A stretch of DNA of 32,000 bases from Kiritimatiella glycovorans (GCF_001017655.1 NZ_CP010904.1:2700001-2732000), one strand, 5' to 3'. Counted from the first letter of the stretch, positions 3,847-29,208 are shown. Made by a program: numbers and translations. Notes: a model not told the origin generated them from the sequence alone.

Positions 3847-3854
3847 GGTTCTAT

Positions 3855-5996
3855 TCACGCGGTCAGCATATCGGCGGCCCGGCGCGAGATTCGCCAGCTC
3901 TCTTCCATCTCCGCGCGCGCGATCGGGAACCGCGTTCCGGACAGGATCTGATCGGCGAAATACATCAGCTCCGTGCGATGACCCTTCTCCGCCGACTTGT
4001 CCTCCCAGTCCGCAGCGACACCGAATCCCCGCACAGACTTATAATCGACCATTTCGATCATTTGTTCATCGAAGAAGACGTCCATCCGCTCTTTCGGCGC
4101 CTGTTTCGATCCGATCCCCGTATAGAGCAGCGAGGCGACCGAACCGTCCGCGTAGCTCACCGTGATCACCGCGTTGTCCTCCGCCCGCACGGAATCGGTA
4201 CGCGGCCGGACTCCGTCGACGCTCACCGATGCGGCGGGCGCGTTGATCAGGAAGCGAAAGAGGTCGAAGATATGGCACCCTTCACCGACAATGCGGCCGC
4301 CACCCTCTTCCGTATGCACCCAGTGATCATAGGGGATGTATCCGCCGTTCATCACGTAACGAATCATGACCGGATTGACGCGTCCCTCAAGCCGCGGCCG
4401 GATCTGCGCGATCGCCGGCGCGAAGCGACGGTTGAATCCGACCATGTAAGGTGCCTGCGTCTCGTCGAGCGCATTCGAAAGCATCTCGAACTGCGTCTCA
4501 GTCACCGCCATCGGTTTTTCGACAAAGACCGCCTTCCCGCGCCGCAGCGCCCGGGCCGCAATCTCCGCATGAGAGTCGTGCCGCGTCCCGATCAGCACCA
4601 CGTCCGCGTCGCCCTCCAGCACCCGCCGCGGATCGGTTTCAATGCTGATACGGTCGCGACCGAACATCCGGGCCGCTTTGCGGGCGGCGAGGGCGTTCTG
4701 ATCACAGATCGCCGTGACCTCGTAGCGCGCGCCGAGTTCCTTCAGATTCGGCACGTGCATGCCGCAGACGAACGACCCGGCCCCGATCAGTGCGGTCTTG
4801 AGCGGTTTCCCTGATGCCGGCGGGCTCCACTCCACCGCCGGGATGCTGACGGAGGCCTCCCCGCGCGGGATCTCTTCTTCAGAAGGTTCGTAGGTAAGCA
4901 ACACCAGCAGCGGCCGCTCCCCGCCCTTCAAGGCGCTGAATGCCTCCTGGGCGCGCTCCACGGGAAAGGTTTCACCGATGATCTCATGGAGCCTCACGGC
5001 ACCGGACGCGATCTGTTCCAGGTAGGCGCCCATGTTGCGCTGTTCAGTCCAGCGCACGTAAGCGTAAGGGTAGTCGTGGCCTTTGCGCTCGTACTGCTCG
5101 TCATAGCGTCCCGGACCGTAGGATGTGGACAAAACAAAATCCAGTTCCTTGCGGTACATCTCCTTGCGGTCCAGTTCCATGCCTGCCACGCCGACGAGCA
5201 CCACGCGTCCTTTGCGCCGTGACATGCGGAAGGCCTGCAGGAGCGGCTCGCTGGACGACGTCGCGGCGGTGACGATCACACGGTCGGCACCCTGTCCGTT
5301 GCAGTGGTGGGTCACCCGGCTCGCCGCATCCCCGTCCTCCGGATTGAACACCTTCTCCGCACCCAGTGCGCGGGCCTGTTCCAGTCGGCGCGCGTCGAGA
5401 TCCAGCCCGATTACACGGCAGCCCGACGCACGCAGGAGCTGGACGGTCAGCAGCCCGATCGCGCCGCAGCCTATAACGGCGACGAAATCCCCGAGCTGCA
5501 CTTCCGCGCGTCGCACGCCCTGCAGGGCGATGCCTCCGAGCGCGCATGTGCTCGCATCCTCCAGCGTGACCCCGTCGGGGATCCGCACCGCGAGATTCAC
5601 AGGGACCGACGCCATTTCCGCATGATTCGCATATCCCGCGCCGGCGATCGCCACGCGGTCGCCCGGCGCAAAACCTGTCACCCCCCGGCCTGCGTCGCTC
5701 ACAACGCCCGCTGCCGAGTACCCGCTGGCGGACTCCGCCCCCTGCTTCGCCTGCGCTTTGCGGAGAACCGTCAGCACCCCTTCCGTCTTCATCCGTTCGA
5801 ACGCCGCCTTCACTTTTTCGGGATGCTCGCGGATCTTGTCGAACAGCGTCTTTCCCGAGGCCGTAAGTCCCGCCATTTCCGTGCCGGGACTGATGCAGCT
5901 CGCCCGCACGTCGACGAGAAGCTGTCCGTCTTCCGCTGCCGGAGGAGGCACGTCCACCGGCCGAGCTGCGCCGCTGCTGAAAATAATACGCTTCAT
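3855..5996 (-). CDS. Bi-domain oxidoreductase (N-terminal zinc/MDR alcohol-dehydrogenase-like domain fused to a C-terminal Gfo/Idh/MocA domain)
   Basis: 713 aa. The MDR part has the Rossmann motif 'AVIGCGAIGLLTVQLL'. The second half starts 'ALIGAGSFVCGMHVPNL' and carries the Gfo/Idh/MocA 'VFVEKPMA' (EKP) motif. Confidence 0.85.
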   Translation of the reverse strand: MKRIIFSSGAARPVDVPPPAAEDGQLLVDVRASCISPGTEMAGLTASGKTLFDKIREHPEKVKAAFERMKTEGVLTVLRKAQAKQGAESASGYSAAGVVSDAGRGVTGFAPGDRVAIAGAGYANHAEMASVPVNLAVRIPDGVTLEDASTCALGGIALQGVRRAEVQLGDFVAVIGCGAIGLLTVQLLRASGCRVIGLDLDARRLEQARALGAEKVFNPEDGDAASRVTHHCNGQGADRVIVTAATSSSEPLLQAFRMSRRKGRVVLVGVAGMELDRKEMYRKELDFVLSTSYGPGRYDEQYERKGHDYPYAYVRWTEQRNMGAYLEQIASGAVRLHEIIGETFPVERAQEAFSALKGGERPLLVLLTYEPSEEEIPRGEASVSIPAVEWSPPASGKPLKTALIGAGSFVCGMHVPNLKELGARYEVTAICDQNALAARKAARMFGRDRISIETDPRRVLEGDADVVLIGTRHDSHAEIAARALRRGKAVFVEKPMAVTETQFEMLSNALDETQAPYMVGFNRRFAPAIAQIRPRLEGRVNPVMIRYVMNGGYIPYDHWVHTEEGGGRIVGEGCHIFDLFRFLINAPAASVSVDGVRPRTDSVRAEDNAVITVSYADGSVASLLYTGIGSKQAPKERMDVFFDEQMIEMVDYKSVRGFGVAADWEDKSAEKGHRTELMYFADQILSGTRFPIARAEMEESWRISRRAADMLTA

Positions 5997-6009
5997 GCTA
6001 CACTCGCTT

Positions 6010-6681
6010 TCAGGCTATGGCTTCCACGTAGAAAGACTCGTGGCTGCGTTCTTTAAGATCAATCAGCAGCTCAGCGTCGTCACCCTCCATAAAGGACTGT
6101 TGTGAAATCGAATCAAATCCCGCTTTGTCCAAGGCTTTCTCGAGAAGTTCATAATCATACATGCACTTGTGAGTCCCTCCGCAGGCCCCGAATATGCGGT
6201 TCAGCGACATTATGGGCGTGTATATGGGAAATATGCGCTTATGTTCATCTTCGCCGGGAAACCTGTATTTCGAAGGCTCGCTGCGTTTTTTCATGTATGT
6301 GCCGATATAGAAATCCGGATCGGGTAATACCACACGCAAGACGCCTCCTTTTTTGAGCGCTCTTTTACATTCCCGTAACAAATTCAGCCCCTCGCCTATA
6401 TCAAGATGCTCAAGGCAGTGGGAGCTATATATTCCCGATAAAGAATTGTTTTTTAAAGGAAGCGGATGGGAGAGGTCCCAGCATATGTCAATACCGGGGC
6501 TCCAATTTTAATCGAGGTTTATAAACTCTTCATGAATACTGCGACCACAGCCTAAATCCAGGTATTTGCAGCTTCTGAGTTTATCCTTATGGACGAAAAG
6601 CTTTCTGTTTCTAATCAGATCACTGATAAGAAAGCGAAGTCGCGCATATTCATGCCATGGCCTTATGAGCTTTTTCTTCAT
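6010..6681 (-). pseudogene. Class I SAM-dependent methyltransferase interrupted by an in-frame TAA
   Basis: Hand translation from ATG 6681: MKKKLIRPWHEYARLRFLISDLIRNRKLFVHKDKLRSCKYLDLGCGRSIHEEFINLD*NWSPGIDICWDLSHPLPLKNNSLSGIYSSHCLEHL...LKKGGVLRVVLPD... The stop TAA lies at 6510..6508 in the same frame, between SAM motif I (LDLGCG) and the rest of the domain. The ORF track only reports the 3' piece 6010..6381, which starts at TTG. Confidence 0.7.
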
Positions 6682-6935
6682 TATTATCCCTTTTGCTTTT
6701 TCAGAATCAGCGGCAGTCCCCCGGTGGGGGCGGTTAAACAGTTCTTTTTCGTGTTCCGTAAAATTTATCCCAACGCTTCTACAGCGGCCTCAGTCTCAGT
6801 TCTGCGCCGCGCCCGAAGACCACGAGCCTCGAGCCCGCTGCTTCGATACAATAAATCCGCAGGCTTTAAGGGTATAGTTATTTACATCCCTCAGATAAGA
6901 AAATAACCTCTGTCTGATCTGGGTCTGCCCGTCGC

Positions 6936-7883: not shown

Positions 7884-8080
7884 TCACGCGCTGGTTCGGC
7901 TTGCGTCTCTCGGGTAAGGCGCGATCTCCGAGCACGGCGGTTTCGGAGAAACCGCCCTACCTTCACGCGTTGGTTCAGCCTGCATCTCTCAGGCAGGGCG
8001 TGCTCTCCGAGCGCGCCGCTCTTTTGCGGACGGCCTTCTGCTGTGCAGCAGAATCCCTACACGCGCTTGGTTCGGACTAC
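7884..8080. repeat. Tandem repeat of about 80-97 bp, 2.3 units, between convergent genes
   Basis: Unit starts are TCACGCGCTGGTTCGGCTTGCGTCTCTCGGG (7884), TCACGCGTTGGTTCAGCCTGCATCTCTCAGG (7963) and a partial CACGCGCTTGGTTCGGACTAC (8060). The two complete units each end in CCCTAC. The first 50 nt of units 1 and 2 are about 80% identical. Each unit carries its own hairpin: GGCGGTTTC-GGA-GAAACCGCC at 7936..7956 and TTCTGCTG-TG-CAGCAGAA at 8036..8053. Confidence 0.7.
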
Positions 8081-8211
8081 ATTTATTGGCCATGAGTTTC
8101 TTGAATCCGTGGAGCAGAATCGTGCCTTTCGCGTGTTTCGCAGTGACTCCGCACCGGCACGGAACGACGACAAGCGGCAGCTGCACATAGAGCATCCCCT
8201 GCACTGCGGCC

Positions 8212-17862: not shown

Positions 17863-18696
17863 CTAGCCTTCAGTGTGGCCTTCACCCCACCAGAACTCCG
17901 CAAAATCACGGCCGGCCCGTGCGCTGAGCCGTTCGACTTCCGCCCTGTAGCGGTCCCGCCACGAATCGCGCTCCGCCGGATCGAGTTCGGGCGCCTCAAT
18001 TCTTCTCCCCCAGAGCTGCTTTAGCTTCCGGCGCACCATGTTCCCGATCCGGCCCGGAATCAGAGCCTGCAGATTCCGCAGACCTCGCAGAGGTTCGGGG
18101 AGCGCGAACAGATCGTCCCCGGCATTTTCATGCGGCAGAGGCGTCAGATGGTCTCCGATGGAGAGAAATGAACATAGTTCGCGCTGTACTTTTTCGGGAT
18201 TACGCAGGAGATCTTCGAGGGCGATAATTTTCCAACGGGACCACGCACTCACTGCGCGATACTGCTCGACCTGATGCGCATACCGTCCACAGTCAAACAG
18301 CGCGGGACACCGCTCCACCGCCTCGTCGAGACTCAGCCCCTCCGGAATCCAGCGGTAATAGACGGCGTGGCGGTAGTGGGAAATCAGCCGTTCCACGGGA
18401 TCACGCACCATGTAGATGTACCGGATATCGCCAAGGGTCTCATGGATCCGCTGCGGCACGTCCGCGATGTGAGGATGCCAAGTGTAGGCGGTCGACGCCT
18501 CTCCAACCGCCTTCTTCCCTTCTGCGCTCTCGAAGAGCGACGCGTACCATGCGAGACCGCGGCCCCGGCTGGGATGCGAGAAATAACGCGGCTCCTTGGG
18601 TTCGCACATGAACACGTCCGGATGCTGCGCCAGTATGGACGCCAGGGTCGTGGTGCCCGCTTTTTCGGCGCCGACGATCAGAAAGTTGGGGAGCAT
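17863..18696 (-). CDS. Sulfotransferase (PAPS-dependent, Sulfotransfer_1-like)
   Basis: ORF 17863..18759 begins at a TTG. The ATG at 18696 gives MLPNFLIVGAEKAGTTTL, placing the 5'-PSB loop directly at the N-terminus as in homologues. The 3'-PB motif is 'YMVRDPVERLISHY'. Confidence 0.85.
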   Translation of the reverse strand: MLPNFLIVGAEKAGTTTLASILAQHPDVFMCEPKEPRYFSHPSRGRGLAWYASLFESAEGKKAVGEASTAYTWHPHIADVPQRIHETLGDIRYIYMVRDPVERLISHYRHAVYYRWIPEGLSLDEAVERCPALFDCGRYAHQVEQYRAVSAWSRWKIIALEDLLRNPEKVQRELCSFLSIGDHLTPLPHENAGDDLFALPEPLRGLRNLQALIPGRIGNMVRRKLKQLWGRRIEAPELDPAERDSWRDRYRAEVERLSARAGRDFAEFWWGEGHTEG

Positions 18697-18766
18697 AGCA
18701 GGGGTGACTTTCGGCTCGTTAAGACCGGTTTCAGCAGGGCGCCACGCCCGTGCACGCAAAAGATTT

Positions 18767-19000
18767 CACCACGGATGGCACCGATCGCACGGATGAGATA
18801 CGGCATTGGAACGTGAACGGGGCGGGCAAATCCCGCCGGCCCGGCATTACGGGCCGGGGCTGCTCGATACGCGGGAAGCCGCAAACCCGTTTGCGGCTTC
18901 CCGCGTATCGAACAACCCGTCCCCGTTCACGTTTCCTTTGCGTCCCCGCATCTCTGCGCGAGGCCTATTTCTTATCCGTGCCATCCGGGCAATCCGTGGT
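18767..19000. repeat. Intergenic repeat copy A: complete palindromic unit with inverted triple-iteron ends
   Basis: The left end is ACCACGGAT GGCACCGAT CGCACGGAT (18769..18795). The right end is ATCCGTGCC ATCCGGGCA ATCCGTGGT (18974..19000). The inverted internal blocks are GGAACGTGAACGGGG and CCCCGTTCACGTTTCC. Small GC hairpins occur at 18821..18837 and 18842..18859. Confidence 0.85.
18865..18910. repeat. 46-bp perfect palindrome at the centre of copy A
   Basis: CGATACGCGGGAAGCCGCAAAC (18865..18886), then cc, then GTTTGCGGCTTCCCGCGTATCG (18889..18910). The arms are exact reverse complements, checked base by base. Confidence 0.9.
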
Positions 19001-19921
19001 TCTCCCGACCAGATGCTTCAACCCCGCCGCCAGGTCGCACTCCGGACGAAATCCGAATGCGGACCCGATGGCGTCAATCGCGGCGACGGAATGCCGGATA
19101 TCACCCTCGCGCGGCGGTTCAAAGCGGGGTTGGACCTCGCGGTCGAAAATGTTCGCGAGGACATCGATCAATTTCAGCAGCGAGGTCTCGCGGCCTGTAC
19201 CCACATTGTAGATCCCGAAAGATGCGCCGGGGGCGGCGTCCATAGCCATCAGATTCGCGCGGACCACATCGCCGACATAAATGAAATCGCGGCCCTGTGT
19301 GCCATCCCCGAAAATGACCGGTTTATCATCCCGCTGCAGAGCGTCCGCGAAACGCGAGATCACGCCGGAATACGGCGACGACGGATCCTGTCGCGGGCCA
19401 TAGACGTTGAAGTAGCGCAGCGAGACGCCCTCCATCCCATACATTGCCGCGTAGGTCTTCAGTTCGTATTCCGAAGCGAGCTTGGCCACGGCATAGGGGG
19501 TGATCGGATCGGGATTCATCGTTTCGCGCTTAGGCAGCGTCGGCTCGTTGCCGTACACCGCCGCGGACCCGGCCATCACCATGCGCCGCACACCGTTTTC
19601 GCGCGCCGCTTCCAGCAGATTGACGGTGCCGGTCAGGTTGATGTCATGGTTGTCCCGGGGACGACGGATCGAATCCGCCACGGAGACCAGTGCCGCCTCA
19701 TGGAAGATGCCGTCGCATCCCGCGGACGCGCGAAGACACGTATCCGGATCGCGGATGTCCCCCTCGATGAATTCGATTCGGTCGCGCACGCGCGCCAGGT
19801 TCTCGAGGTGTCCCGAGGACAGATCGTCGAGCACCACGACCGAATCTCCGCGATCGACCAGGGCGTCGACCAGATGAGAGCCGATGAAGCCCGCACCGCC
19901 GGTTATGAGATATTTTTTCAT
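18965..19921 (-). CDS. NAD-dependent epimerase/dehydratase (extended SDR), WbpP/TviC/GalE-like UDP-HexNAc(A) 4-epimerase
   Basis: 318 aa with 'ITGGAGFIGSHL' (GxxGxxG) and the catalytic 'PYAVAKLASE' (YxxxK). The overall order of motifs matches UDP-sugar 4-epimerases. The last 11 codons (TTDCPDGTDKK) and the stop lie inside repeat copy A. Confidence 0.85.
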   Translation of the reverse strand: MKKYLITGGAGFIGSHLVDALVDRGDSVVVLDDLSSGHLENLARVRDRIEFIEGDIRDPDTCLRASAGCDGIFHEAALVSVADSIRRPRDNHDINLTGTVNLLEAARENGVRRMVMAGSAAVYGNEPTLPKRETMNPDPITPYAVAKLASEYELKTYAAMYGMEGVSLRYFNVYGPRQDPSSPYSGVISRFADALQRDDKPVIFGDGTQGRDFIYVGDVVRANLMAMDAAPGASFGIYNVGTGRETSLLKLIDVLANIFDREVQPRFEPPREGDIRHSVAAIDAIGSAFGFRPECDLAAGLKHLVGRTTDCPDGTDKK

Positions 19922-20111
19922 TTACTCTCGCGAAGGCGCAAAGTTCGCAGAGGAATCAAATCCCGGATGTTACCGGGGCGGAGAAAACCTGCAAACGGGT
20001 TTGCGGGCTTTCCGCGTATCGAGCAGCCCTTCCCCGTTCACGTTTCTTTTGCGTCCCTGCGTCTCTGCGCGAGGCTTATTTCTTATCCGTGCCATCCGGA
20101 CAATCCGTGGT
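19922..20111. repeat. Intergenic repeat copy B (leader module + central hairpin + CCCCGTTCACGTT block + triple iteron)
   Basis: It fills nearly the whole gap between the epimerase ATG (19921) and the wecB stop (20121). The leader module is CTCTCGCGAAGGCGCAAAGTTCGCAGAGGAATCAAATCCCGG. The hairpin is GCAAACGGGTTTGC. The iterons are ATCCGTGCC ATCCGGACA ATCCGTGGT (20085..20111). Confidence 0.85.
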
Positions 20112-20120
20112 CGTCCCCGA

Positions 20121-21260
20121 TTAAGTCCTGTTTTCCAATTCCGTCACGATGCGCTCCGCGGTTTTGCCGTCCCAGAGCGGGGGGCGATGGCCGCGCCGTT
20201 CCATGTTCAGGAACGTATCGAGAGCCGAGGTGATCTTTTCCGGATCGGGACCGGTCAGCTCGGAGACGCCGCCGTTTTCGACGAGCGTGACGGGCCGCTC
20301 GGTATTCTCCCGCATGGTGATACAGGGGGTGCCGAGCACACAGCACTCCTCCTGCAGCCCCCCGCTGTCGGTCAGCATCAGCCGCGCGCTCATGTTCAGC
20401 TTCAGCATCGCGTGATATCCCACGGGCCGGATCAGGATCAGGCGATCGTCCGCAAGCAGCTCGTCCCAGAGTCCGAAGGTCTCCAGGCGGTTCCGGGTGC
20501 GGGGGTGAATCGACCACACCAGCGGCATCTTCGAAGCTACCTCCTCGCGCAGGCAGCGGACCAGCGGCTCGAGTACTTCGCGCGAATCGACGTTCGACGG
20601 TCGATGCATCGTCATGACGGCGAAGGAGCCGTCATCCACCGGCGTCTTCAGATCCGGATCGATCGCATGGGAGGTGAGGATGTCATTCAGATCGAGGGCT
20701 TCGGCCCGGGCGCGATGGGCCTCGAGGGTATCGATCATGATGTTGCCGACGAAGCGGATGCGCTCCTCTTCCGCACCTTCGCGCCGGAGATTTTCGCCGG
20801 AGAGTTCGTCGGGGGTGAGCAACAGATTGGAAACGCGGTCGGTTACCATCCGGTTGATCTCCTCCGGCATCCGCTCGTCGAACGACCGCAGACCGGCCTC
20901 GATGTGCGCGACTCGGACGTGGTGTTTGCGCGCGGTGATCGAACAGGCGCAGGTGGCGTTGACATCGCCCACCACCACGACCCAGTCCGGCCGGCGTTCC
21001 AGCAGGACCTTCTCGAAGGCGATCATCGTCCGCCCCACCTGTTCGGCGTGTGATCCCGATCCGATTTCGAGATCGACATCCGGCGTAGGGATATTCAGCG
21101 CCTCGAAAAAGGAATGATACATCTCCGGGTCGTAGTGCTGACCCGTATGCACCAGGAAATGCTCGATCCGGTCGTCCTCCCGCTCGATGGCGTGGGCGAA
21201 CGGCGCGATTTTCATGAAATTGGGGCGCGCCCCGACGACGGACATTATTTTCAGCGACAT
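20121..21260 (-). CDS. wecB: UDP-N-acetylglucosamine 2-epimerase (non-hydrolysing)
   Basis: 379 aa with 'VVGARPNFMKIAP', 'VHTGQHYDPEM' and 'LEIGSGSHAEQ', all hallmark WecB/MnaA motifs. Confidence 0.9.
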   Translation of the reverse strand: MSLKIMSVVGARPNFMKIAPFAHAIEREDDRIEHFLVHTGQHYDPEMYHSFFEALNIPTPDVDLEIGSGSHAEQVGRTMIAFEKVLLERRPDWVVVVGDVNATCACSITARKHHVRVAHIEAGLRSFDERMPEEINRMVTDRVSNLLLTPDELSGENLRREGAEEERIRFVGNIMIDTLEAHRARAEALDLNDILTSHAIDPDLKTPVDDGSFAVMTMHRPSNVDSREVLEPLVRCLREEVASKMPLVWSIHPRTRNRLETFGLWDELLADDRLILIRPVGYHAMLKLNMSARLMLTDSGGLQEECCVLGTPCITMRENTERPVTLVENGGVSELTGPDPEKITSALDTFLNMERRGHRPPLWDGKTAERIVTELENRT

Positions 21261-21310
21261 AGATTGATGCCTTTCTGCGCGGGTTTTATTTAACCACGAG
21301 CAGTTGCCTT

Positions 21311-21420
21311 TTTCATTTGCTCTCGCGAAGGCGCAAAGTTCGCAAAGGAATCAAATCCCGGATGTGAACAAGGCGGGCGGGAACTCTTTCTTATCCGTGT
21401 CATCCGGGCCATCCGTGGTT
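21311..21420. repeat. Intergenic repeat copy C (internally deleted: leader module joined directly to the iteron end)
   Basis: TTTCATTTGCTCTCGCGAAGGCGCAAAGTTCGCAAAGGAATCAAATCCCGGATG...CTTTCTT ATCCGTGTC ATCCGGGCC ATCCGTGGT (iterons 21393..21419). It lacks the central hairpin and the CCCCGTTCACGTT block. Confidence 0.8.
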
Positions 21421-21445
21421 CTCCCCGCTTCTGTCCCGTGGGCGT

Positions 21446-22570
21446 CTAATCGCCACAAACCAAATCGCGCCAGTTCTCTTCGGAGACCATCAGGGTCTGA
21501 GCTTCGGGGTACGCCCTGGTAAAGGTTTTGGGGATGCCTCCGCGTCCCGGGCGTCGTTTGATCTCGGCCGCCCTCATCATGTCCGGGGATTCTTCGACGT
21601 AATCGATCTCCTGCTGCTGATAGGTGCGCCAGTACCAGCTTCGTCGCGGCAGACCGTGGTTCTTCAGGGTTTTCATCCTTTCCGCGATCAGGAAATTCTC
21701 CCAGAGCGCACCGGCATCGGACCTCGTTTGCAGCGGAGCGAAGTTATTGAGCACGGCATTACGGACCCCGGTGTCCCAGAAATAGATCTTGCGCATCTTC
21801 TTCAGTTCGTTGCGGAGGTTGCGGCTGAACGGGGTCAGGCGAAAGACCACGAAGGCCTGTTCCAGGATCCGGATATAGGTTTCCACCGTGCCCTGATCCA
21901 GCCCGACCAGTCCGGCCAGTTCGCGGTAAGAGACCTCCGATGCGATCTGGAGGGCGAGGGCCGAAACCAGCTTCTCCAAGGCCTCCGGGTGGCGAATCGA
22001 ACCCAGCACCAGGATATCCTTGTAGAGATAGCTGGCCGCGATTTCCCGCAGCCGCTCGCCGGCCTCGGCCTCCCCCGACAACGCCGGCTCCGGATACATC
22101 CCGTATACGACGCTTTTGGACCGCAGCCGATCCGTTTCCAGCGCACCCCTCGCCCGCTCTATTTCCTCCAAAGAAAAGGGAGGGAGAAAAAACTCGAATT
22201 TTCGCCCCGTCAGCGGCTCTTTCAGGCGATCCGCGAGTTCGAAACTCGACGACCCCGTCGCCAGCACCTGAATCTGCGGGAAACTGTCCACCAGGAGCTT
22301 CAGCGTCAGGCCGACATTCTCGATGCGCTGCGCCTCATCGATCACGACCAGCGACGCATCCCCGATCAGGCTCTTCAATTCGGAGGAGGTGCGACCGGCA
22401 AACCTGCTCCGTATGTCGGGCTCATCCGCGTTGAAGTACACCCCGCCGCGCCTGTCCAGAAGATCGCGGACAAGGGTCGTCTTACCGGTCTGGCGAGCCC
22501 CGTAGAGGAGAATCGCTTTGCCCTTGAAAAGCCGCGATTCAAGCCTGTTTATGACAATTCTATTGATCAC
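21446..22570 (-). CDS. AAA+ ATPase (AAA_14 + DUF4143-type ATP-binding protein), orphan
   Basis: 374 aa with a GTG start (the preceding in-frame codon triplet is a stop). Walker A is 'GARQTGKTTL' and Walker B is 'LVVIDEAQ'. The C-terminal half has the DUF4143-like organisation. No partner gene is present. Confidence 0.8.
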   Translation of the reverse strand: MINRIVINRLESRLFKGKAILLYGARQTGKTTLVRDLLDRRGGVYFNADEPDIRSRFAGRTSSELKSLIGDASLVVIDEAQRIENVGLTLKLLVDSFPQIQVLATGSSSFELADRLKEPLTGRKFEFFLPPFSLEEIERARGALETDRLRSKSVVYGMYPEPALSGEAEAGERLREIAASYLYKDILVLGSIRHPEALEKLVSALALQIASEVSYRELAGLVGLDQGTVETYIRILEQAFVVFRLTPFSRNLRNELKKMRKIYFWDTGVRNAVLNNFAPLQTRSDAGALWENFLIAERMKTLKNHGLPRRSWYWRTYQQQEIDYVEESPDMMRAAEIKRRPGRGGIPKTFTRAYPEAQTLMVSEENWRDLVCGD

Positions 22571-22694
22571 GATCTACTATTTATATATAAATTATAGAAT
22601 ATGATCAATATATTTATTTAACCAGTAGAGTAGAGAGGGAGCCACGGGATGAGAGGCTTAGAGCCAATGACCGCGGACTGCCCTCCCCCTCGTC

Positions 22695-22727
22695 GAACCG
22701 GACATGCGGATTTCCCGCATCCGGCTC
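22695..22727 (-). ncRNA. Group II intron domain V
   Basis: The minus strand reads GAGCCGGATGCGGGAAATCCGCATGTCCGGTTC. This has the two-helix hairpin with a GAAA tetraloop and matches the canonical domain V pattern (GAGCCGUAU...GAAA...GUACGGUUC). Confidence 0.75.
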
Positions 22728-22753
22728 TCGCGGAAGGCATTTGTTGGATGGTT

Positions 22754-24085
22754 TCACAGGTAGATCAGTCCCATGTTCTTGAAATGCGCGTAGTAGCTCA
22801 TACCTTCAGGGGGCCAGTAGCCGCGCTGACTGCGTCGTTTCGCATGTCGCGTGAGACGCTGTCGCACGTATCCATTGACGTGGCGGAATGCCACACGCGG
22901 ATAACCCAGCGAGAAGTAGTTTGCCCATCCTCGCATTTGCATGTTGAGTTCGTCGATCACCGTCGGCAGAGGTTTGAAGCATTGTTCCGGTCCGGTCATC
23001 TCCCGAAGCCGATCACGTTCCCGTTGGAGCGCTTTCCGCGACGGTGTCAGGTTCCAGTACCGGCACGGGCGTCCGCCGAGGTCCCGGTCATAGCGGAAGC
23101 TATATCCGAGAAAGTCCAGCGTCTGCCCCGGTTCCCGAGCATCGAGTATCCGGGTCTTGTCCCGGTTGATCTTCAGCCCGAGCCACCCTTCTATCTTGGC
23201 TTCGATGAACGCTTCGAGTTGCGGACCGATATACCGGGCGAGGACCACGAAGTCATCGGCGTACCTCACCAGTTTGGCCTTCGCCCACCGTGCCGGTCCG
23301 TCTTTGCGGTAAAACACCGCATCGAACCAGTGCAGATAGATGTTGGCCAGAAGCGGCGAAATGACCCCGCCTTGCGGCGTGCCCTTGTCGTTGCGCTTCA
23401 CGGTCGGCGGTTTGCCTTTCTCCGTTTCCTCTACCGGCGCTTTCAGCCACATTCGGATCAGCTTCAGCACGGACCGGTCGGTGACACGCATCTGCACACA
23501 AGCGATGAGCTTGTCGTGTGGAATACTGTCGAAATAGCCGGCCAGATCCGCATCATAAACCGCACACCGCCCTTGCCGGAGCTCCTGTCCAATCGCCTTC
23601 AACGCATCATGCGCCGAGCGCTCAGGCCGGAACCCATGGGAGCAGTCCTTGAAGTCAGCTTCAAAGATCGGTTCCAATATCAGAACCGTAGCGGTCTGCA
23701 CGACCCGATCCCGCACCGAGGGTATTCCCAAGGGACGGAGTTTCCCGTTCACCTTCTGGATGTAGACCCGCCGCACTTTTCCAGCACGGTAGGTTCGATC
23801 CTTCAGGCTGCGTTCAATATCCGCCAGGAAGGCTTCGACTCCTCCTTGACTCTGTTCGATGTCCTCGATGGTCACACCATCGGGGCCTTCTTTTCCGCCG
23901 TTGGCGCGTACATGTTTCCATGCCGCCAGCAGAGTGTCGGCCCGGCCAATGTGGCCATAGAGACTGTAGAAGCGAAACCGCTTCTCCTGTTTGGCCTTCT
24001 GACTCAGCTTCTGTCTCAGCGCGGCGAGTTTCGGCGGCAAGAGTCTGTCGTCAATGCGATAGTACTCCGTCGCTTCTTCTGTCAT
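22754..24085 (-). CDS. Group II intron reverse transcriptase/maturase (no endonuclease domain evident)
   Basis: ORF 22754..24097 (TTG); the first ATG is at 24085 (MTEEATEYY). RT motifs are '[16 protein letters not shown]' and the catalytic '[10 protein letters not shown]'. The maturase (X) region has 'MRGWANYF'. The protein ends soon after X, with no HNH-type Cys/His motifs. Confidence 0.9.
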
Positions 24086-24525
24086 AGGTTTCACCAATCA
24101 GTCCCCCGCGCTTCTTACTCAGCTCGTCTTCCGCCGAGACCCCTTCGCTCCACGGGCATTACCCCGCTTCATCACTACTACGAGCCTCTCCGACTCCCGC
24201 ACGCGATCACCCCCGAGGTTATTGATTCCCCCACGGGCTTGTCGGCTTACCCGACATCACGGCGGGCCTCCCAAGTTCCTGGCTGTTCTTTCTGCGCGCG
24301 CCGTCTCTTGTTACCCCGGAGGGCCTTGCCGGTGCATATGACCGTTCCTTCCCGACAAGTGCTGGCTTCATCATATCCGATAGGCTGGCCGCCCTCGACT
24401 TGTGTAACGAGGCTGAATCAAGTTCGCTTTCGCTACGGCTCGCGCGTTCGCCTTCCCAGGCTTCGACGCCGGGGTTACCCCCGATCACCGCTGGGTCGGC
24501 TACATGTGCAACGATCAATTCACAC

Positions 24526-26085
24526 GACTGATAACCATATAGAGGTTCTTTGAAATAGACGCTGGTCGAATGCAACGTACTCTTTGTTTAAGCAAAAACG
24601 AAAGGAGTACCGGATATGCAAACGACCAGCGCAAAGGAATTGTACGCAGGAGCCGACCTGCATGGAAACAATGTTTTTCTCTCGATTTGCGACCGGGAAG
24701 GCACGGAAGTCTTCCGGCGGCGGGTACGAACCACGCTCGATGCAGTCAATGAGGCGATGGATCCCTACTGGCCGCAGGTTCAGGCGATGGGGATTGAGTC
24801 CACGTTCAACTGGTACTGGCTGGTGGACGGCTTGCGTGAGCAGAACCGGGACGTGCGATTGGGGAATCCGGCGAAGATGAAACAGTACAAGGGGTTGAAA
24901 CATGCCGATGACGCATCGGATGCTCGTTGGCTGGCCGAACTGCTCCGATTGGATATTTTCCCGGAGAGCTACATTTATCCGAAGGAGGTTCGTTCGATTC
25001 GCGACGCGCTTCGACGCCGACAGCTGTTTGTCAGGCGGCGCACCCAGGTTATGCTCAGCCTGCAAAGCCTGCTGGAGCGTTACGGATTCAAGGCGCCGGG
25101 ATCGCGTGCTCTTCAGCAGTGGACGCAGGCGGATGTCGAGGCGACGGGCCTTGATCCGTTCGTACAGCTTCAACTCCGCACGTTGCTTGAGGCGGTCCAG
25201 TGCAGTGAGCGGCTGGCCGGACAGATCGAATCAGCGGTGCTGGGGTTTATTGAGCCCAACCCATCGTTTGAACAGGTTCAGACCGTGCCGGGCATCGGGA
25301 AGGCGCTTGGGATGACCATCGTGCTTGAAAGCGGCAACTTCGCCCGCTTCCCGAACGCGGGATGCTACGCCTCCTACTGCCGCGCCGTCAAAAGTGAGCG
25401 AAGTTCCAACAGCAGGAAGAAAGGTGAGAACAATAAGCGCAACGGCAATCCGTTTCTCGCATGGGCTTTCGTTGAAGCCGCGAGCTTCGCTCCGCGCTTT
25501 TATCCGGAGATTCAATCCTGGTATGACCGGAAGAAGAAAAAGCGCAACGCGATTGTGGCGAAGAAGGCCTTGGCGGCAAAATTGTCCAAAGCCGTTTGGC
25601 ATGTCATGAACGGGGAGGAATATGTAATGGGAATGTTGTTTTAAAACCCGATGCTGCCGGGAACCGGCTAGGGGTCTGCTTAAATCAGCGGACTGATTGG
25701 AACCGGCGGCATCGCTTCAGCTTTTGCGGTCTGTCCTGTCGTCAGCCTTCAAGGGTCTGGAAGTCTGCGTGCAGATGAACCACGGTGACTGAATAGGCAA
25801 CGAGCGGGAACAAACGGTTTTCTGGCTCCAATACGAGAACGGGTGGCGGCCATGGATCTGGAAAAGATTCGCCCTCACCTAAAAACCAGATGGGTGACTG
25901 AAACAACCGCAAACGAAAACCACGGTACGGAACGCAACGGTTGAGGCGACGGTTGAATCCGATCAAAACAAGGCATGAAGGGAAGCCGCTTGATCAGCGG
26001 CACGAAGGGGACTTTTGTGTTTGACCGGAACCTCTAATGGGTGACTCCTTTCATTCAGTTAGAAACAGCCAAGCTTTGCTTGGCG
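24526..26085 (+). mobile_element. IS110-family element, approximate extent (left end possibly split by the group II intron and continuing at 22571..22624)
   Basis: The AT-rich 5' flank (24526..24615) and the 441-bp non-coding 3' flank (25645..26085) differ in composition from host genes. The right limit is inferred from where repeat copy E begins (26086), just after the GCCAAGC-TTT-GCTTGGC hairpin (26069..26085). No terminal inverted repeats were found, as expected for IS110. The ends are not verified. Confidence 0.35.
24616..25644 (+). CDS. IS110-family transposase (DEDD-type recombinase)
   Basis: 342 aa with a strong RBS (AAAGGAG 8 nt upstream of the ATG). The N-terminal part has 'YAGADLHGNNVFLS' and 'GIESTFNWYW' (DEDD_Tnp_IS110-like). 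The C-terminal part has 'VQTVPGIGKALGMTIVLESGNFARF' and 'KNNKRNGNPFLAWAF' (Transposase_20-like). Confidence 0.9.
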   Translation: MQTTSAKELYAGADLHGNNVFLSICDREGTEVFRRRVRTTLDAVNEAMDPYWPQVQAMGIESTFNWYWLVDGLREQNRDVRLGNPAKMKQYKGLKHADDASDARWLAELLRLDIFPESYIYPKEVRSIRDALRRRQLFVRRRTQVMLSLQSLLERYGFKAPGSRALQQWTQADVEATGLDPFVQLQLRTLLEAVQCSERLAGQIESAVLGFIEPNPSFEQVQTVPGIGKALGMTIVLESGNFARFPNAGCYASYCRAVKSERSSNSRKKGENNKRNGNPFLAWAFVEAASFAPRFYPEIQSWYDRKKKKRNAIVAKKALAAKLSKAVWHVMNGEEYVMGMLF

Positions 26086-26138
26086 CACCGGATCGCACGG
26101 ATGGGATGCGACATTGGAACGTGAACGGGGCGGGCAAA
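26086..26138. repeat. Intergenic repeat copy E (short variant, opposite orientation)
   Basis: CACCGGAT CGCACGGAT GGGATGCGACATTGGAACGTGAACGGGGCGGGCAAA aligns with the left arm of copy A (…GGCACCGAT CGCACGGAT GAGATACGGCATTGGAACGTGAACGGGGCGGGCAAA). It lies immediately 3' of the PIN gene stop (26156). Confidence 0.8.
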
Positions 26139-26155
26139 GACTCTTGTTGTTTTCG

Positions 26156-26533
26156 TTACCAGATCTCAGAGCGTATTCCTTCGTGACTTAAAAGCTTTTT
26201 GTCTTCTGTCAGCAAGATGCAATCCTGATTCATTGCCGACCCGGCGATGACTGCATCCGGAAGTTTGAGATTTTTCTCTGTACGCAGCGTGAGAATCTGC
26301 TCTTTCAACTGCCGATTTGCTGATGCCAAGTCAACAACATTGACCTTTTCCCTAAACTGTCCGAATAGTGCTTTGTCTTCGTCGGGCAGACCCGGAAAGG
26401 CAAGATATTCCAATTCACAAATCACGAAGGTGGCAACATAATCTGCCCCATTCAATATCTCCAGCAAGTTGTTGTTGCCGGCAAGCAATGCAATGATGGC
26501 ATTGGTATCGAGGAAATAACGTTTACCATTCAT
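26156..26533 (-). CDS. PIN-domain ribonuclease toxin (VapC-like)
   Basis: ORF 26156..26563 trimmed to MNGKRYFLDTNAII. The acidic PIN residues are in 'FLDTNA', 'ICELEY', 'PDAVIAGSA' and 'LLTEDKKL'. The ATG overlaps the antitoxin 3' end by 11 nt. Confidence 0.85.
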   Translation of the reverse strand: MNGKRYFLDTNAIIALLAGNNNLLEILNGADYVATFVICELEYLAFPGLPDEDKALFGQFREKVNVVDLASANRQLKEQILTLRTEKNLKLPDAVIAGSAMNQDCILLTEDKKLLSHEGIRSEIW

Positions 26534-26729
26534 CGCGCAGCTTCCGTTGTTCCTCCACCGCATTCCCCGACCACTTTAGCCGGCCGGACAGCGATGAAAA
26601 ATCATAGCTTCCCTTATCGCCGCTCGGAGTCAGCAGTGTGATTAGCACGTGCGCGACGGAAGGAAGTTTTTGAATCTCCGGACTTTTAACCTGCCCATTT
26701 TCTATATCTGCTTCTATCGTTGTGTACAT
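26523..26729 (-). CDS. Type II antitoxin (AF2212/DUF104-like N-terminus) partner of the PIN toxin
   Basis: 68 aa with an RBS (GAGG 8 nt upstream). The N-terminus 'MYTTIEADIENGQVKSPE..KLP' follows the DUF104 pattern (xIEAxYENGxxKP). The C-terminus is '...EEQRKLRDEW'. It overlaps the downstream toxin gene. Confidence 0.65.
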   Translation of the reverse strand: MYTTIEADIENGQVKSPEIQKLPSVAHVLITLLTPSGDKGSYDFSSLSGRLKWSGNAVEEQRKLRDEW

Positions 26730-26858
26730 ATTCTTACCTCATTGTAATGGCTGACTGGCTGCAATCTTCCTGGAGTTCAAATCAGAGGAAATTGCGTTAC
26801 GTTATGCCGGCCAGTCGAGCCGGGAGTAAGGGTGCCATTTTTGGTCAGGTCTGTGAAC

Positions 26859-26921
26859 TCATTCCGCCAGCATGAAGCTCCGCCGACTGCCGCGCCGCCG
26901 ATTATGAGATATGTTTTCATT
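26859..26921 (-). pseudogene. Relic 5' fragment of an SDR/epimerase-like gene (20 codons plus stop)
   Basis: Hand translation gives MKTYLIIGGAAVGGSFMLAE*. This aligns with the N-terminus of the 18965..19921 epimerase (MKKYLITGGAGFIGSHLVDA). Nucleotide similarity continues from the repeat leader module into the first roughly 30 coding nt: GATTATGAGATATGTTTTCAT here versus GGTTATGAGATATTTTTTCAT in the epimerase. Confidence 0.5.
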
Positions 26922-27095
26922 CACTCTCGCGAAGGCGCAAAGTTCGCAGAGGAATCAAATCCCGAACGTTACCGGGGCGGAGAAAGCCTGCAAACGGATT
27001 TGCGGGCCCTCCCCTCCCCGTTCACGTTTCCTTTGCGTCTCCGCGTCTTTGCGCGAGGCCTCTTTCTTATCCGTGCCATCGGTGCCATCCGTGGT
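26919..27095. repeat. Intergenic repeat copy D (leader module + hairpin + CCCCGTTCACGTT block + triple iteron)
   Basis: The leader module is CTCTCGCGAAGGCGCAAAGTTCGCAGAGGAATCAAATCCCGAACG. The hairpin is GCAAACGGATTTGC. The conserved block is CCCCGTTCACGTTTCCTTTGCGTCTCCGCGTCTTTGCGCGAGGCC. The iterons are ATCCGTGCC ATCGGTGCC ATCCGTGGT (27069..27095). Its iteron end is the near-exact reverse complement of the left end of copy A. Confidence 0.85.
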
Positions 27096-27130
27096 CCTCT
27101 TCCTTCCGTGCGCATTCGATATGAAAGAAG

Positions 27131-27541
27131 TTATTCGCTCGTCTTGCCCGCCAGGGTCTGCTCCAGGTCCAGGAAGGCGGGATGGAATTCCGTGCGCACG
27201 TCGTGAACGATTTCGCGGGCCGCGGCCTCGTTACAGGTATGGGATGTCCTGTTGCGGCTCTCGATCATCTTCATCCATACATGCCCATCGCTGAACAGCC
27301 CCTCTGAAAAGGCCTTGCGGAAGGTGTCGCGCGACCCGATCAGTTCCGCGACGCCCTGATATTCGAGGTAATCGCGCAACGTGTTCCAGGCGAGTTCATA
27401 CGTGTATTCAAACGCCTTGACCAGCCCCTGTTCCTCCAGCTTGTTCAGCTCTTTCTGCTCAAGAAATTCGCTGAGCTGGTTGAGTGCTTTCCGGTAATTC
27501 GAAAAACGTTGCTGCCAGCGTATATCCCTTTCTTCAGTCAC
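27131..27541 (-). CDS. HEPN-domain protein, HI0074-family nucleotidyltransferase substrate-binding protein (toxin of an HEPN/MNT pair)
   Basis: 136 aa. 'IRWQQRFSNYRKAL', 'FEYTYELAWNTLRDYLE' and the RX4H HEPN motif 'RNRTSH' are present. Confidence 0.85.
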   Translation of the reverse strand: MTEERDIRWQQRFSNYRKALNQLSEFLEQKELNKLEEQGLVKAFEYTYELAWNTLRDYLEYQGVAELIGSRDTFRKAFSEGLFSDGHVWMKMIESRNRTSHTCNEAAAREIVHDVRTEFHPAFLDLEQTLAGKTSE

Positions 27542-27854
27542 GGCGGACTATCTCCTTTCCCGCGCGATCGATGTGCTCGATCAGATCAGGATTATCTATC
27601 CGATCGTATATGGACAGGTCGATCTCGTAGGGCAACAGCAACTCGTCCATCCGAAGCATAAGATCGGTCAGTATTTCAGGAGAGAGGTTCGGACCCTTCA
27701 GCGTCAGGTCGATGTCGGACCCCGGACGATGCGTGCCTTTTGCCCGTGATCCGTAGAGGATTACCTCTTTAACCTCAGGTTCCGATCCGAAGATGGACAT
27801 GATTCGTTCCATCTCGTCGGGATCAAGCCCGGGTATGGTGCCGACCGTATTCAT
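27534..27854 (-). CDS. Minimal nucleotidyltransferase (MNT, HI0073-like antitoxin)
   Basis: 106 aa with 'ILYGSRAKGTHRPGSDIDLTL' (GS-x9/10-DxD polymerase-beta-type NTase motif). It overlaps the HEPN gene by 8 nt. Confidence 0.85.
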   Translation of the reverse strand: MNTVGTIPGLDPDEMERIMSIFGSEPEVKEVILYGSRAKGTHRPGSDIDLTLKGPNLSPEILTDLMLRMDELLLPYEIDLSIYDRIDNPDLIEHIDRAGKEIVRRD

Positions 27855-27898
27855 AGAAAAGCGACGGGGCGTCTTTCGCCATTCAGGATTCTTGTGTA

Positions 27899-27924
27899 AC
27901 GACCGATCGCACGGATGGGATGCC
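27899..27924. repeat. Intergenic repeat copy F (truncated iteron end)
   Basis: ACGACCGAT CGCACGGAT GGGATGCC matches the first 26 nt of copy E. It stops exactly at the stop codon of the dehydrogenase gene (TAA 27927..27925). Confidence 0.7.
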
Positions 27925-29208
27925 TTACAACCGCCCGTCGACCTTCGACTTGTCGAGGATGCCTTTCACGTCGTAGACGACCCCGTCGCCGGACGTCAGC
28001 GCGCGGATCGCGTCCGCGCCCATCTCCGCGAACTGGCGGTGGCCGACGGCGACGACGACCGCATCGTAAGAACCTTTCTTCAGCGAGGCGGGGTCGCTGA
28101 TCAGATCAATGCCGTAGGAGATCCTGGCTTCTTCGGCGAGGCACCAGGGATCACAGACCTCCACCTCGACCCCGAAATCCGTCAGCTCCGAAATGATGTC
28201 CACGACGCGCGTGTTGCGCAGGTCGGGGCAGTTGTCCTTGAACGTCAGCCCCATCACCAGGACGCGCGAGCCGACGACCTGAATCCGCTTCCTGAGCATC
28301 AGCTTGACGACCCGGTCAGCGATATAGCGTCCCATGGCATCGTTCATCCGCCGCCCGGCCAGGATCATCTCGGGATGATGCCCCGTCTGCTGCGCCTTGT
28401 ACGTCAGGTAGTACGGGTCCACACCGATGCAGTGGCCGCCGACCAGCCCCGGCCGGAACGGAAGAAAATTCCATTTCGTCCCCGACGCCTCCAGCACCTC
28501 CAGCGTGTCGATTCCCAGGCGATTGAAGATCAGCGACAACTCGTTGACCAGCGCGATATTCACGTCACGCTGCGTGTTTTCGATCACCTTCGCCGCCTCC
28601 GCCACGCGGATCGATGAAGCGCGGTGCGTACCGGCCGACACGATCGAGGCGTACAGCGCATCCACGAATTCCGCCGCCTCCGGGGTGGAGCCGGAGGTGA
28701 CCTTCACGATCGAGTCGAGCCGATGCGCCTTGTCGCCGGGATTGATCCGCTCGGGACTGTAGCCGACCGTGAAGTCCTCATTGAAGCTCAGACCGGAGTG
28801 CTCCTCGAGCACGGGAACGCAGACCTCCTCCGTCGCGCCGGGATAGACCGTCGATTCATAGATCACCACATCGCCTTCAGCCAGCACGCCGCCCACCGTC
28901 TCGCTCGCGCCGATGAGCGGGCGCAGGTCGGGACGCCGCGCTTCGTCGACCGGCGTGGGCACGGTCACGATGTAGACATCGCAGTCGCGGATCGATTCGG
29001 GGTCGGCCGTATACGAAAGCTTCGCCGCGGAGGCCAGCTCTTCCGACGAACACTCCAGCGTATTGTCCTCGCCGCGCTGAAGCTCCGCGATGCGAGCCTC
29101 CTTGAGGTCAAAACCGACGACCTCATGCCTGCGCCCGAAGGCCACCGCCAGGGGCAGGCCGACATATCCGAGCCCGATCACACAGATTTTCGGGGAATCG
29201 ATTTTCAT
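27925..29208 (-). CDS. UDP-N-acetyl-hexosamine 6-dehydrogenase (TviB/WbpO/CapL-type nucleotide-sugar dehydrogenase)
   Basis: 427 aa with the N-terminal '[18 protein letters not shown]', '[11 protein letters not shown]', '[11 protein letters not shown]' and the catalytic Cys region '[14 protein letters not shown]'. By my recollection it is collinear along its length with Vi-antigen TviB. A WecC-like ManNAc specificity cannot be excluded. Confidence 0.9.

Follow-up and report, generated by a model that had tools for sequence, protein, structure and literature searches.

Palindromic repeats in a polysaccharide operon

The stretch of the Kiritimatiella glycovorans genome analysed here (NZ_CP010904.1:2700001-2732000, 32,000 nt, hereafter the window) carries a long minus-strand sulfated-polysaccharide operon, whose genes encode sulfotransferases, glycosyltransferases, a Wzx-type flippase, a heparinase II/III-like protein, an NAD-dependent epimerase, UDP-GlcNAc 2-epimerase, UDP-glucose dehydrogenase and 3'-phosphoadenosine 5'-phosphosulfate (PAPS) synthase, and which is broken at 21.4–27.9 kb by selfish genes (an AAA_14/DUF4143 ATPase, a group II intron, an IS110 transposase, a PIN toxin and a nucleotidyltransferase pair). 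Lying against the ends of these genes are copies of a palindromic repeat bounded by arrays of three heptamers. The arrays recur in many phyla and, where a gene is present in the loop of the palindrome, it encodes a ~120-aa protein of the GxxExxY family of PD-(D/E)XK nucleases (PF13366/TIGR04256). On balance we consider it probable that the repeats represent a widespread selfish palindromic element in gene-less and partly decayed form, with the arrays as putative cognate sites of the GxxExxY nuclease.

The six copies named in the original prediction (A to F, Table 1) were all found in place; copy counts for K. glycovorans refer to the window throughout. The search pattern ATCCGTGNNATCNGNNNNATCCGTGGT occurs five times (18768-18794 on the minus strand; 18974, 20085, 21393 and 27069 on the plus strand) and in none of 100 shuffled sequences. 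With the partial arrays of E and F, which show 8/23 and 6/23 mismatches to the consensus, the window thus holds five full and two partial arrays of the form (ATCCGTGNN)x3, where none are expected by chance. The sequence originally described as a leader occurs three times (19925, 21320, 26924; none expected) and CCCCGTTCACGTT five times (0.04 expected). An array search in which mismatches were counted found no copies in the 32 kb beyond those listed, and a weak candidate (6621-6646), which matches D in inverted orientation but has no array and falls within pseudogene sequence of low GC content, was rejected as due to chance. The position of the copies against gene ends was likewise borne out: B, C and D lie 9, 26 and 35 nt from stop codons, A overlaps one, and ATG codons abut copies at 19921, ~21316 and ~26919.

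Table 1. Repeat copies, their parts and the adjoining genes (positions within the window; type 1, CACGGAT/ATCCGTG heptamers; type 2, CGCRRAG heptamers)
Feature	Position	Strand	Description
Copy A	18767..19000		complete gene-less type-1 palindrome, 234 nt, array at each end; parts: CACGGAT type-1 arm, inverted CCCCGTTCACGTT pair, 38-nt inner hairpin, type-2 arm, ATCCGTG type-1 arm
A, outer type-1 array	18768..18794	minus	plus strand reads ACCACGGATGGCACCGATCGCACGGAT; 0 mismatches to search pattern, 1/23 to consensus
A, type-2 arm	18935..18963	plus	CCTTTGCG TC CCCGCA T CTCTGCG CGAGG; partnerless within A
A, other outer type-1 array	18974..19000	plus	overlaps final 12 codons of the epimerase open reading frame
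NAD-dependent epimerase open reading frame	18965-19921	minus	
Copy B	19922..20111		type-2 palindrome (arms 19929-19952 and 20046-20074), then type-1 arm
B, leader (type-2 array)	19929..19952	plus	CGCGAAG G CGCAAAG TT CGCAGAG; 7 nt from the minus-strand epimerase ATG
B, type-1 array	20085..20111	plus	9 nt from stop of UDP-GlcNAc 2-epimerase gene
UDP-GlcNAc 2-epimerase gene	20121-21260	minus	
Copy C	21311..21420		type-2 array 21324-21347, relic heptamer, short loop, type-1 array 21393-21419
AAA_14/DUF4143 ATPase gene	21446-22570	minus	
Group II intron	22625-24531	minus	reverse transcriptase at 22754-24097
IS110 transposase gene	24616-25644	plus	
Copy E	26086..26138	minus	partial CACGGAT type-1 arm and inverted CCCCGTTCACGTT block; 94% identical to 18783-18830 (left end of A)
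Copy D	26919..27095		type-2 arms 26928-26951 and 27031-27053; type-1 array 27069-27095
Copy F	27899..27924	minus	partial type-1 arm; 95% identical to 18780-18799; abuts stop of UDP-glucose dehydrogenase gene
UDP-glucose dehydrogenase gene	27925-29208	minus	

The four modules of which the copies were thought to be built are present as sequences, but together they make up a mosaic, in which two related array types (5-7 copies in 9 kb) are combined with lineage-specific inner hairpins. Copy A, the complete example, folds as a single hairpin at -163 kcal/mol (z = -11.5 against shuffled sequences). In B and D the second type-1 arm has shrunk to one heptamer in the loop (CCCGGAT, standing alone at 19962-19968 in B), while C, 26 nt from the stop of the AAA_14/DUF4143 gene, is a shorter version of the same plan, and all three have a truncated left side with one truncation point. 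Over 123 nt (19891-20013 and 26890-27012), which take in 31 nt of epimerase coding sequence, B and D have 92% identity, and the relic of the first ~10 epimerase codons (MKTYLIIGG...) lies duplicated with the leader to the left of D (26880-26918). The likeness of B and D is therefore in part due to local duplication, and the single truncation point of B, C and D, together with the coding sequence common to B and D, points to local duplication of one truncated copy; the leader-plus-ATG arrangement of these three, present as predicted, owes much to that event. A, E and F stem from a different version of the element. The ~800 nt between E and D contain a PIN toxin-antitoxin pair and the epimerase relic, and E and D seem to be the two ends of a single A-like palindrome that carries cargo in the loop.

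The last 12 codons of the epimerase (18965-19000), RTTDCPDGTDKK followed by the stop, are encoded by the right-hand array of A, and the element appears to have replaced the native 3' end of the NAD-dependent epimerase gene. Beside C there is a stub encoding MKKATARG and then a stop (21290-21316), similar to the epimerase relic at D.

Type-1 arrays across phyla

An exact-pattern scan with 20 specified bases, covering one genome per species, found the type-1 array in at least 120 loci of other genomes belonging to many phyla. Among the matches listed are Verrucomicrobiota (Opitutales, Chthoniobacterales, Limisphaerales, Akkermansiaceae and Methylacidiphilum), Planctomycetota (Pirellulales, Gemmataceae, Isosphaeraceae and Phycisphaerae), Kiritimatiellia, Lentisphaerae, Acidobacteriota, Hydrogenedentota, Poribacteria, Gemmatimonadota, Chloroflexota and Bacteroidota, as well as a Spirochaeta metagenome-assembled genome and the gammaproteobacterium Rudaea. 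These loci (labelled L below) contain 239 arrays at up to four mismatches, and shuffled sequences contain none. Their consensus is (ATCCGTGNN)x2, then ATCCGTGGT, then an A-rich stretch, so that the middle heptamer elsewhere is usually ATCCGTG too; the arrays of the window agree with it at 21-22 of 23 positions.

The usual unit is ACCACGGATnnCACGGATnnCACGGAT, a loop and then ATCCGTGnnATCCGTGnnATCCGTGGT. Pairs in which the CACGGAT arm comes first number 72 among the matches listed, with arms 7-491 nt apart and mostly 7-120 nt, compared to only ~5 close pairs in the opposite order. The GGT end points outward, and the outer flank often reads GGTTAAA. Of 117 intergenic cases, 77 have a gene boundary no more than 100 nt from the GGT end (46 a stop, 31 a start); orientation is therefore not fixed relative to transcription.

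The view that the family had not been described before also held. Rfam 15 contains no family for the element, either at gathering score and at E up to 10 for the window (which matched only the group II intron, RF00029 and RF02005) or at gathering score for 18 array-bearing loci (which matched only a tRNA), and in the searchable literature we found no description of the arrays or of their link to GxxExxY genes. A DNA search of 72,556 plasmids gave no match to a canonical palindrome.

A nuclease gene between the arrays

The 141 array-adjoining genes among the matches listed span 197 Pfam families, of which only PF13366 (PDDEXK_3) is enriched, with six members; the corresponding proteins are named GxxExxY protein in NCBIfam (TIGR04256). 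When all small open reading frames (ORFs) beside arrays were clustered, GxxExxY was again the sole recurrent family, at 7 of the 120 loci listed, and no other family of minigenes recurs. The suggestion that the repeats might be a regulator operator for polysaccharide genes finds no echo in this spread of neighbours. Nor does the partner gene, which encodes a 120-aa PD-(D/E)XK nuclease and no recognisable transposase or recombinase, fit the suggestion of a transposase or recombinase end.

GxxExxY ORFs were found in loops of 374-491 nt at L085, L084 and L046. At the first two the 120-aa ORF fills the loop exactly: the CACGGAT arm follows the upstream host stop by 7-10 nt, the ORF begins 6-30 nt past that arm, the ATCCGTG arm lies 5-27 nt past the ORF stop, and the next host ATG is 5-6 nt further on.

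The strongest evidence for the array-gene link comes from the reverse test, in which 80 metagenomic GxxExxY loci were selected with protein similarity as the only criterion. A correctly oriented array lies within 150 nt of the gene in 65 of the 80, and on both sides in 45; counted in any orientation, arrays are present at ~71. The association was thus observed in both directions. Two architectures recur, the ORF being flanked at each end either by a single arm or by a complete palindrome with a short loop, and two further loci obtained by exact-protein look-up have the same array-gene arrangement. GxxExxY genes are in the same orientation as the upstream gene in 41 cases and opposite in 10, which fits read-through expression.

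In the protein, E27, E37, D66, D76 and K78 are invariant among sequences of the Planctomycetes-Verrucomicrobia-Chlamydiae (PVC) type, with Glu at position 76 in the distant L046 protein. A confident AlphaFold model (predicted local distance difference test, pLDDT, 90; predicted template modelling score, pTM, 0.81) looks like a nuclease: among PDB folds, it best matches core regions of lambda exonuclease, Cas4 (SSO0001) and tRNA-splicing endonucleases, though no match is as strong as E = 1e-3. A sequence search of the PDB returned no relative with a solved structure, PADLOC and PHROGs gave no meaningful defence or phage family, and no relatives were found in viral contigs. The family is very large (7,984 of 8,000 scored candidates matched PF13366/TIGR04256 at E <= 1e-10), and a 2012 superfamily survey lists PF13366 as of unknown function with multiple transfers between divisions (PMC3424549).

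Two side observations concern the neighbourhood of these genes. NAD-dependent epimerase genes akin to the one in the window (28-35% identical) adjoin GxxExxY elements at L198, L202, L204, L171 and L083, and polysaccharide loci may be a frequent home for such elements. At L075 a 413-aa ORF with a P-loop NTPase-like N-terminus (3971-6014) lies between arrays ~1.8 kb apart, on a contig labelled Lactococcus garvieae, probably through a binning error; membership of the AAA_14/DUF4143 family was considered, but tblastn with the protein of the window gene abutting copy C gave no match to it. The same window ATPase has no tblastn match in any of the collected array or GxxExxY loci.

Conservation of the heptamers

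Three observations indicate that the heptamers, rather than a continuous stem, are under selection. Complementarity between the spacers of paired arms is found at only 134 of 396 positions, which is near chance. Deviations from the heptamer consensus are common to both arms far more often than expected (75 observed, 20.8 expected). Finally, the orthologous insertions L085 and L127, lying between thiolase and acetoacetyl-CoA synthetase genes and carrying cargo proteins 82% identical, have kept all heptamers and differ in the spacers. This pattern favours recognition by a protein, in keeping with the earlier view of the 9-bp iterons as protein recognition sites: heptamers are retained across phyla while the 2-nt spacers are free to vary.

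Known short signals did not account for the arrays. Consensus sequences for the DnaA box, parS and the sigma-54 promoter do not fit; iterons of plasmid or phage replication, which are 17-22 bp repeats by a rep gene or origin, were rejected given units of 9 bp, no rep gene and a setting in chromosomal operons; and a sigma-70 promoter scan of 18600-21600 found no sites.

A second array type

The leader of B, C and D proved to be an array as well, made up of three CGCRRAG heptamers at an 8-9 nt period, with an inverted partner (CTTTGCG..CTCTGCG; CTTTGCG..CTCTGCGCGAGG) that borders the ATCCGTG array on its inner side in copies A, B and D. Three CGCRRRG heptamers at this period occur at 15 sites in the window and the collected loci and never in shuffled sequences; among the sites are the leaders of B, C and D, the inverted partner within D, and L015, L027, L049, L092, L113 and L121. 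They form clear palindromes at L027, L049, L113 and L121. A type-2 array is also found at a Sphingomonas GxxExxY gene (L215), whose flanking sequence CACGCGAAGGCGCGAGGACGCGAAG has the core CGCGAAGGCGC in common with the window leader CTCGCGAAGGCGCAAAGTTCGCAGAGG. This common core and the CGCRRRG sites elsewhere identify the leader as a second array type.

More distant GxxExxY genes (31-37% identical), taken from plasmids and megaplasmids, are flanked by other heptamers with the 8-9 nt period kept. These are CACAGAG/CTCTGTG in Bacteroides finegoldii (L214), CGCGGAT/ATCCGCG in Gemmatirosa (L217), CGCGAAG/CTTCGCG in Sphingomonas (L215), ACAAATN as direct repeats in Prevotella (L220) and a single CACGGAT/ATCCGTG pair in Treponema (L216), so that the heptamer type shifts with the GxxExxY lineage. 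Two of these genes, with their arrays, lie between core housekeeping genes of a single operon and leave no more than a few nt of spacer: between fabD and fabG on the Sphingomonas plasmid and between radA and an FAD-dependent gene in B. finegoldii.

Signs of movement, decay and amplification

GxxExxY proteins from Opitutaceae, Pirellula and Gemmataceae have 75-80% identity to one another, which implies that they have been transferred between phyla. An internally deleted GxxExxY relic lies between the arms at L187, the expected intermediate on the way to gene-less palindromes. A flank of 850 nt is common to L141 and L191 (84% identical) but adjoins the array-gene-array unit at opposite ends in the two, and L198 has a second palindrome at the place where its relative L083 has 1.6 kb. 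Copies within one genome have lineage-specific inner or flanking sequence in common (L020, L091/L104, L099). An indel between L169 and L180 was rejected as an instance of movement, since it is not an array element.

Arrays can also amplify in tandem, as indicated by two loci: L079 contains 11.6 tandem copies of a 44-nt unit (3463-3971, 95% matching) consisting of one type-1 array plus 17 nt, and L087 a long tandem run of ATCCGYRGT 9-mers.

Other features of the window

Upstream of the AAA_14/DUF4143 gene is a 33-nt AT-rich palindrome, directly followed by the group II intron and the IS110 gene (22556-25700). Between the operon and a plus-strand sulfotransferase gene, a low-GC tract (6000-6900; 47% compared to ~60%) holds only short broken ORFs and may be a decayed foreign gene. 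Between the same plus-strand sulfotransferase gene and the next minus-strand ORF is an unrelated local repeat of TCACGCGYTGGTTCRGC... (7884-8082), with two 56-nt copies that are 80% identical and 79 nt apart, a third partial copy, and internal inverted repeats.

Selfish element or host signal

If the repeats are remains of a selfish element, its conserved part is an array of three heptamers of the form C-R-C-R-R-A-K at an 8-9 bp period, in inverted orientation at its two ends, and in full copies elsewhere two such arrays bracket the ~120-aa nuclease gene. The arrays would be the recognition sites of the nuclease, which would act on them at the DNA level through mobilisation, homing or recombination; we infer binding, cleavage and mobility from the patterns described above. 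Internal deletion of full copies would give gene-less palindromes that persist in short intergenic spacers and stand to the nuclease gene much as REPs and REPINs (repetitive extragenic palindromes and their paired forms) stand to RAYTs (REP-associated tyrosine transposases), or as MITEs (miniature inverted-repeat transposable elements) stand to a transposase. In the K. glycovorans operon, the CACGGAT and CGCRRAG array families would have become interleaved, a truncated copy and the start of the epimerase gene would have been duplicated locally to give B, C and D, and toxin-antitoxin and ATPase genes would have come to lie between arms.

Several facts weigh against this interpretation. Only ~6% of the array loci listed have a GxxExxY gene, and in the 32-kb window there is neither gene nor relic; the middle heptamer of the window arrays is also degenerate (CCGGG, CCGGA, CGGTG). 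Target-site duplications, which the original prediction had raised, are not visible, the bases outside the arms being inverted complements (TTGA...TCAA, TTTTA...TAAAA) and not direct repeats, and among the loci compared there is no clean pair of filled and empty sites. A nuclease of 120 aa is by itself incapable of strand transfer. In addition, the co-varying heptamer deviations also fit a structural reading, in which the arms pair as three 7-9 bp helices with 2x2 internal loops.

A more ambitious form of the selfish-element interpretation is that GxxExxY genes and their arrays constitute an unrecognised minimal class of mobile element, in which the bare 120-aa nuclease would recognise three-heptamer arrays and spread by cutting gene-less palindromes and being copied into their loops (homing); MITE-like palindromes would thereby be left behind between operon genes in many phyla. 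We put this forward only tentatively, as a possibility with the odds against it.

It is unlikely, though deserving of serious consideration, that the palindromes are instead host cis-elements (mRNA-stabilising or terminating hairpins, RNase III sites or sites for a host protein) into which GxxExxY genes merely insert. There is a parallel in IS1397, which targets the loops of REPs. Such a role would suit copies lying in operon spacers a few nt from stop or start codons, the very stable fold of A, the confinement of cargo to the loop, the co-variation of heptamer positions between arms, and the 41 to 10 excess of GxxExxY genes co-oriented with the upstream gene, which suggests read-through expression. 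However, no known factor is common to Verrucomicrobiota, Bacteroidota, Acidobacteriota and Chloroflexota and yet reads lineage-specific heptamers, and the heptamer type follows the GxxExxY lineage. The spacers are not complementary, there is no preferred orientation relative to neighbouring genes (46 against 31), and a T-run terminator is absent after most copies, as is any Rfam match. The link between arrays and nuclease is kept whether the palindromes are selfish elements or host cis-elements.

An integron-like cassette system, with small genes (GxxExxY, toxin-antitoxin pairs, DUF4143 ATPases) exchanged between hairpin recombination sites, is very improbable. It would account for imperfect hairpin-forming palindromes of 60-180 bp beside small accessory genes, for the GGTTAAA flank resembling the attC core GTTRRRY, and for the genes found between arms, namely the toxin-antitoxin and ATPase genes of the window and the ATPase-like ORF of L075. 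Yet there is no integrase among the 141 array-flanking genes, the elements are single and scattered in housekeeping operons rather than forming cassette arrays, conserved internal heptamers are not a feature of attC sites, and GxxExxY is the only recurrent cargo at the loci listed.

The last two alternatives we regard as having next to no chance of being correct. Duplication of one intergenic region within the polysaccharide locus would explain the B/D identity, the truncation point of B, C and D, and the clustering of all copies within 9 kb; it is refuted for the arrays, given the at least 120 type-1 loci in other genomes (which bear out the expectation of more than a local duplication), the type-2 arrays of L015, L027, L049, L092, L113, L121 and L215, and the separate version behind A, E and F, and it stands only for the leader, ATG and codons of B, C and D. 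The notion that CACGGAU represents CsrA/RsmA-type GGA sites, the element acting as an RNA sponge or translational operator, draws on the fit to the A(N)GGA core of CsrA sites and on a last heptamer 6 nt before the GxxExxY ATG in some full copies, but fails on the occurrence of both orientations relative to transcription, on a partner arm that would pair with the GGA motifs and hide them, on ACAAATN and CGCGAAG heptamers without GGA, and on a sole Csr-family Rfam match, in the inner hairpin, of 14.8 bits against a threshold of 61.

Comparison with known systems

The prediction that the repeats are REP- or MITE-like intergenic palindromes has held up. Like REPs, the bacterial interspersed mosaic elements (BIMEs) that they form, and REPINs, the repeats are short extragenic palindromes between genes, often in operons, which form mosaics of repeat types, and the associated gene is itself flanked by inverted repeats, as is the case for RAYTs. 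REPs are imperfect palindromes of 20-40 bp, tagged GTAG or CGTC at one end and species-specific (PMC3733652). By comparison, the arms described here begin ACCACGGAT or TCACGCAGAG without either tag, are made up not of one stem but of three heptamers set apart by free spacers, and have a sequence common across phyla, while the gene that recurs between them encodes a 120-aa PD-(D/E)XK nuclease rather than an HUH/Y1 transposase.

The resemblance to MITEs lies in terminal inverted repeats (27-nt arrays, as in copy A and the 72 close pairs elsewhere), in gene-less copies that far outnumber gene-bearing ones, in the internally deleted intermediate at L187, and in families with lineage-specific inner sequence within one genome. 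Unlike MITEs, the elements have no detectable target-site duplication and no transposase of a known family, and their ends are multi-site arrays. Ends of the latter kind, with several close direct copies of a motif that are inverted between ends, are found in the TnsB sites of Tn7, the ends of Mu and the subterminal hexamers of Ac/Ds. Here the motif is a 7-nt repeat at a period of 9 bp, present three times per end, and the protein is a bare nuclease domain.

Two other systems resemble the element in part. The intervening sequences of 23S rRNA in Leptospira and Coxiella (S23p) also have a ~120-aa ORF between inverted repeats able to pair as a long stem, and likewise lie within a transcribed unit that they do not inactivate (PMC4990558, for Coxiella); their ORF encodes a four-helix bundle rather than a PF13366 protein, and they lie in rRNA rather than between protein genes. 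Integron attC sites are likewise imperfect hairpins bordering small accessory genes, with a core that the outer flank recalls, but no integrase or cassette array accompanies the repeats, whose internal sequence is conserved.

The element works like a REP/RAYT system or a MITE with its parent, yet lacks the GTAG or CGTC tag and HUH transposase of the one and the target-site duplication of the other. Its recognition accounts for the long hairpins and inserted selfish genes in the K. glycovorans polysaccharide operon, and for a class of palindromes between the genes of PVC bacteria, Acidobacteriota and Bacteroidota, which annotation pipelines and Rfam overlook. It also provides PF13366/TIGR04256, a family of unknown function found within housekeeping and polysaccharide operons in many phyla, with a concrete candidate substrate of 27 bp. 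If the nuclease does mobilise the arrays, the two together would amount to a REP/RAYT-like system that relies on another enzyme fold and moves between phyla.

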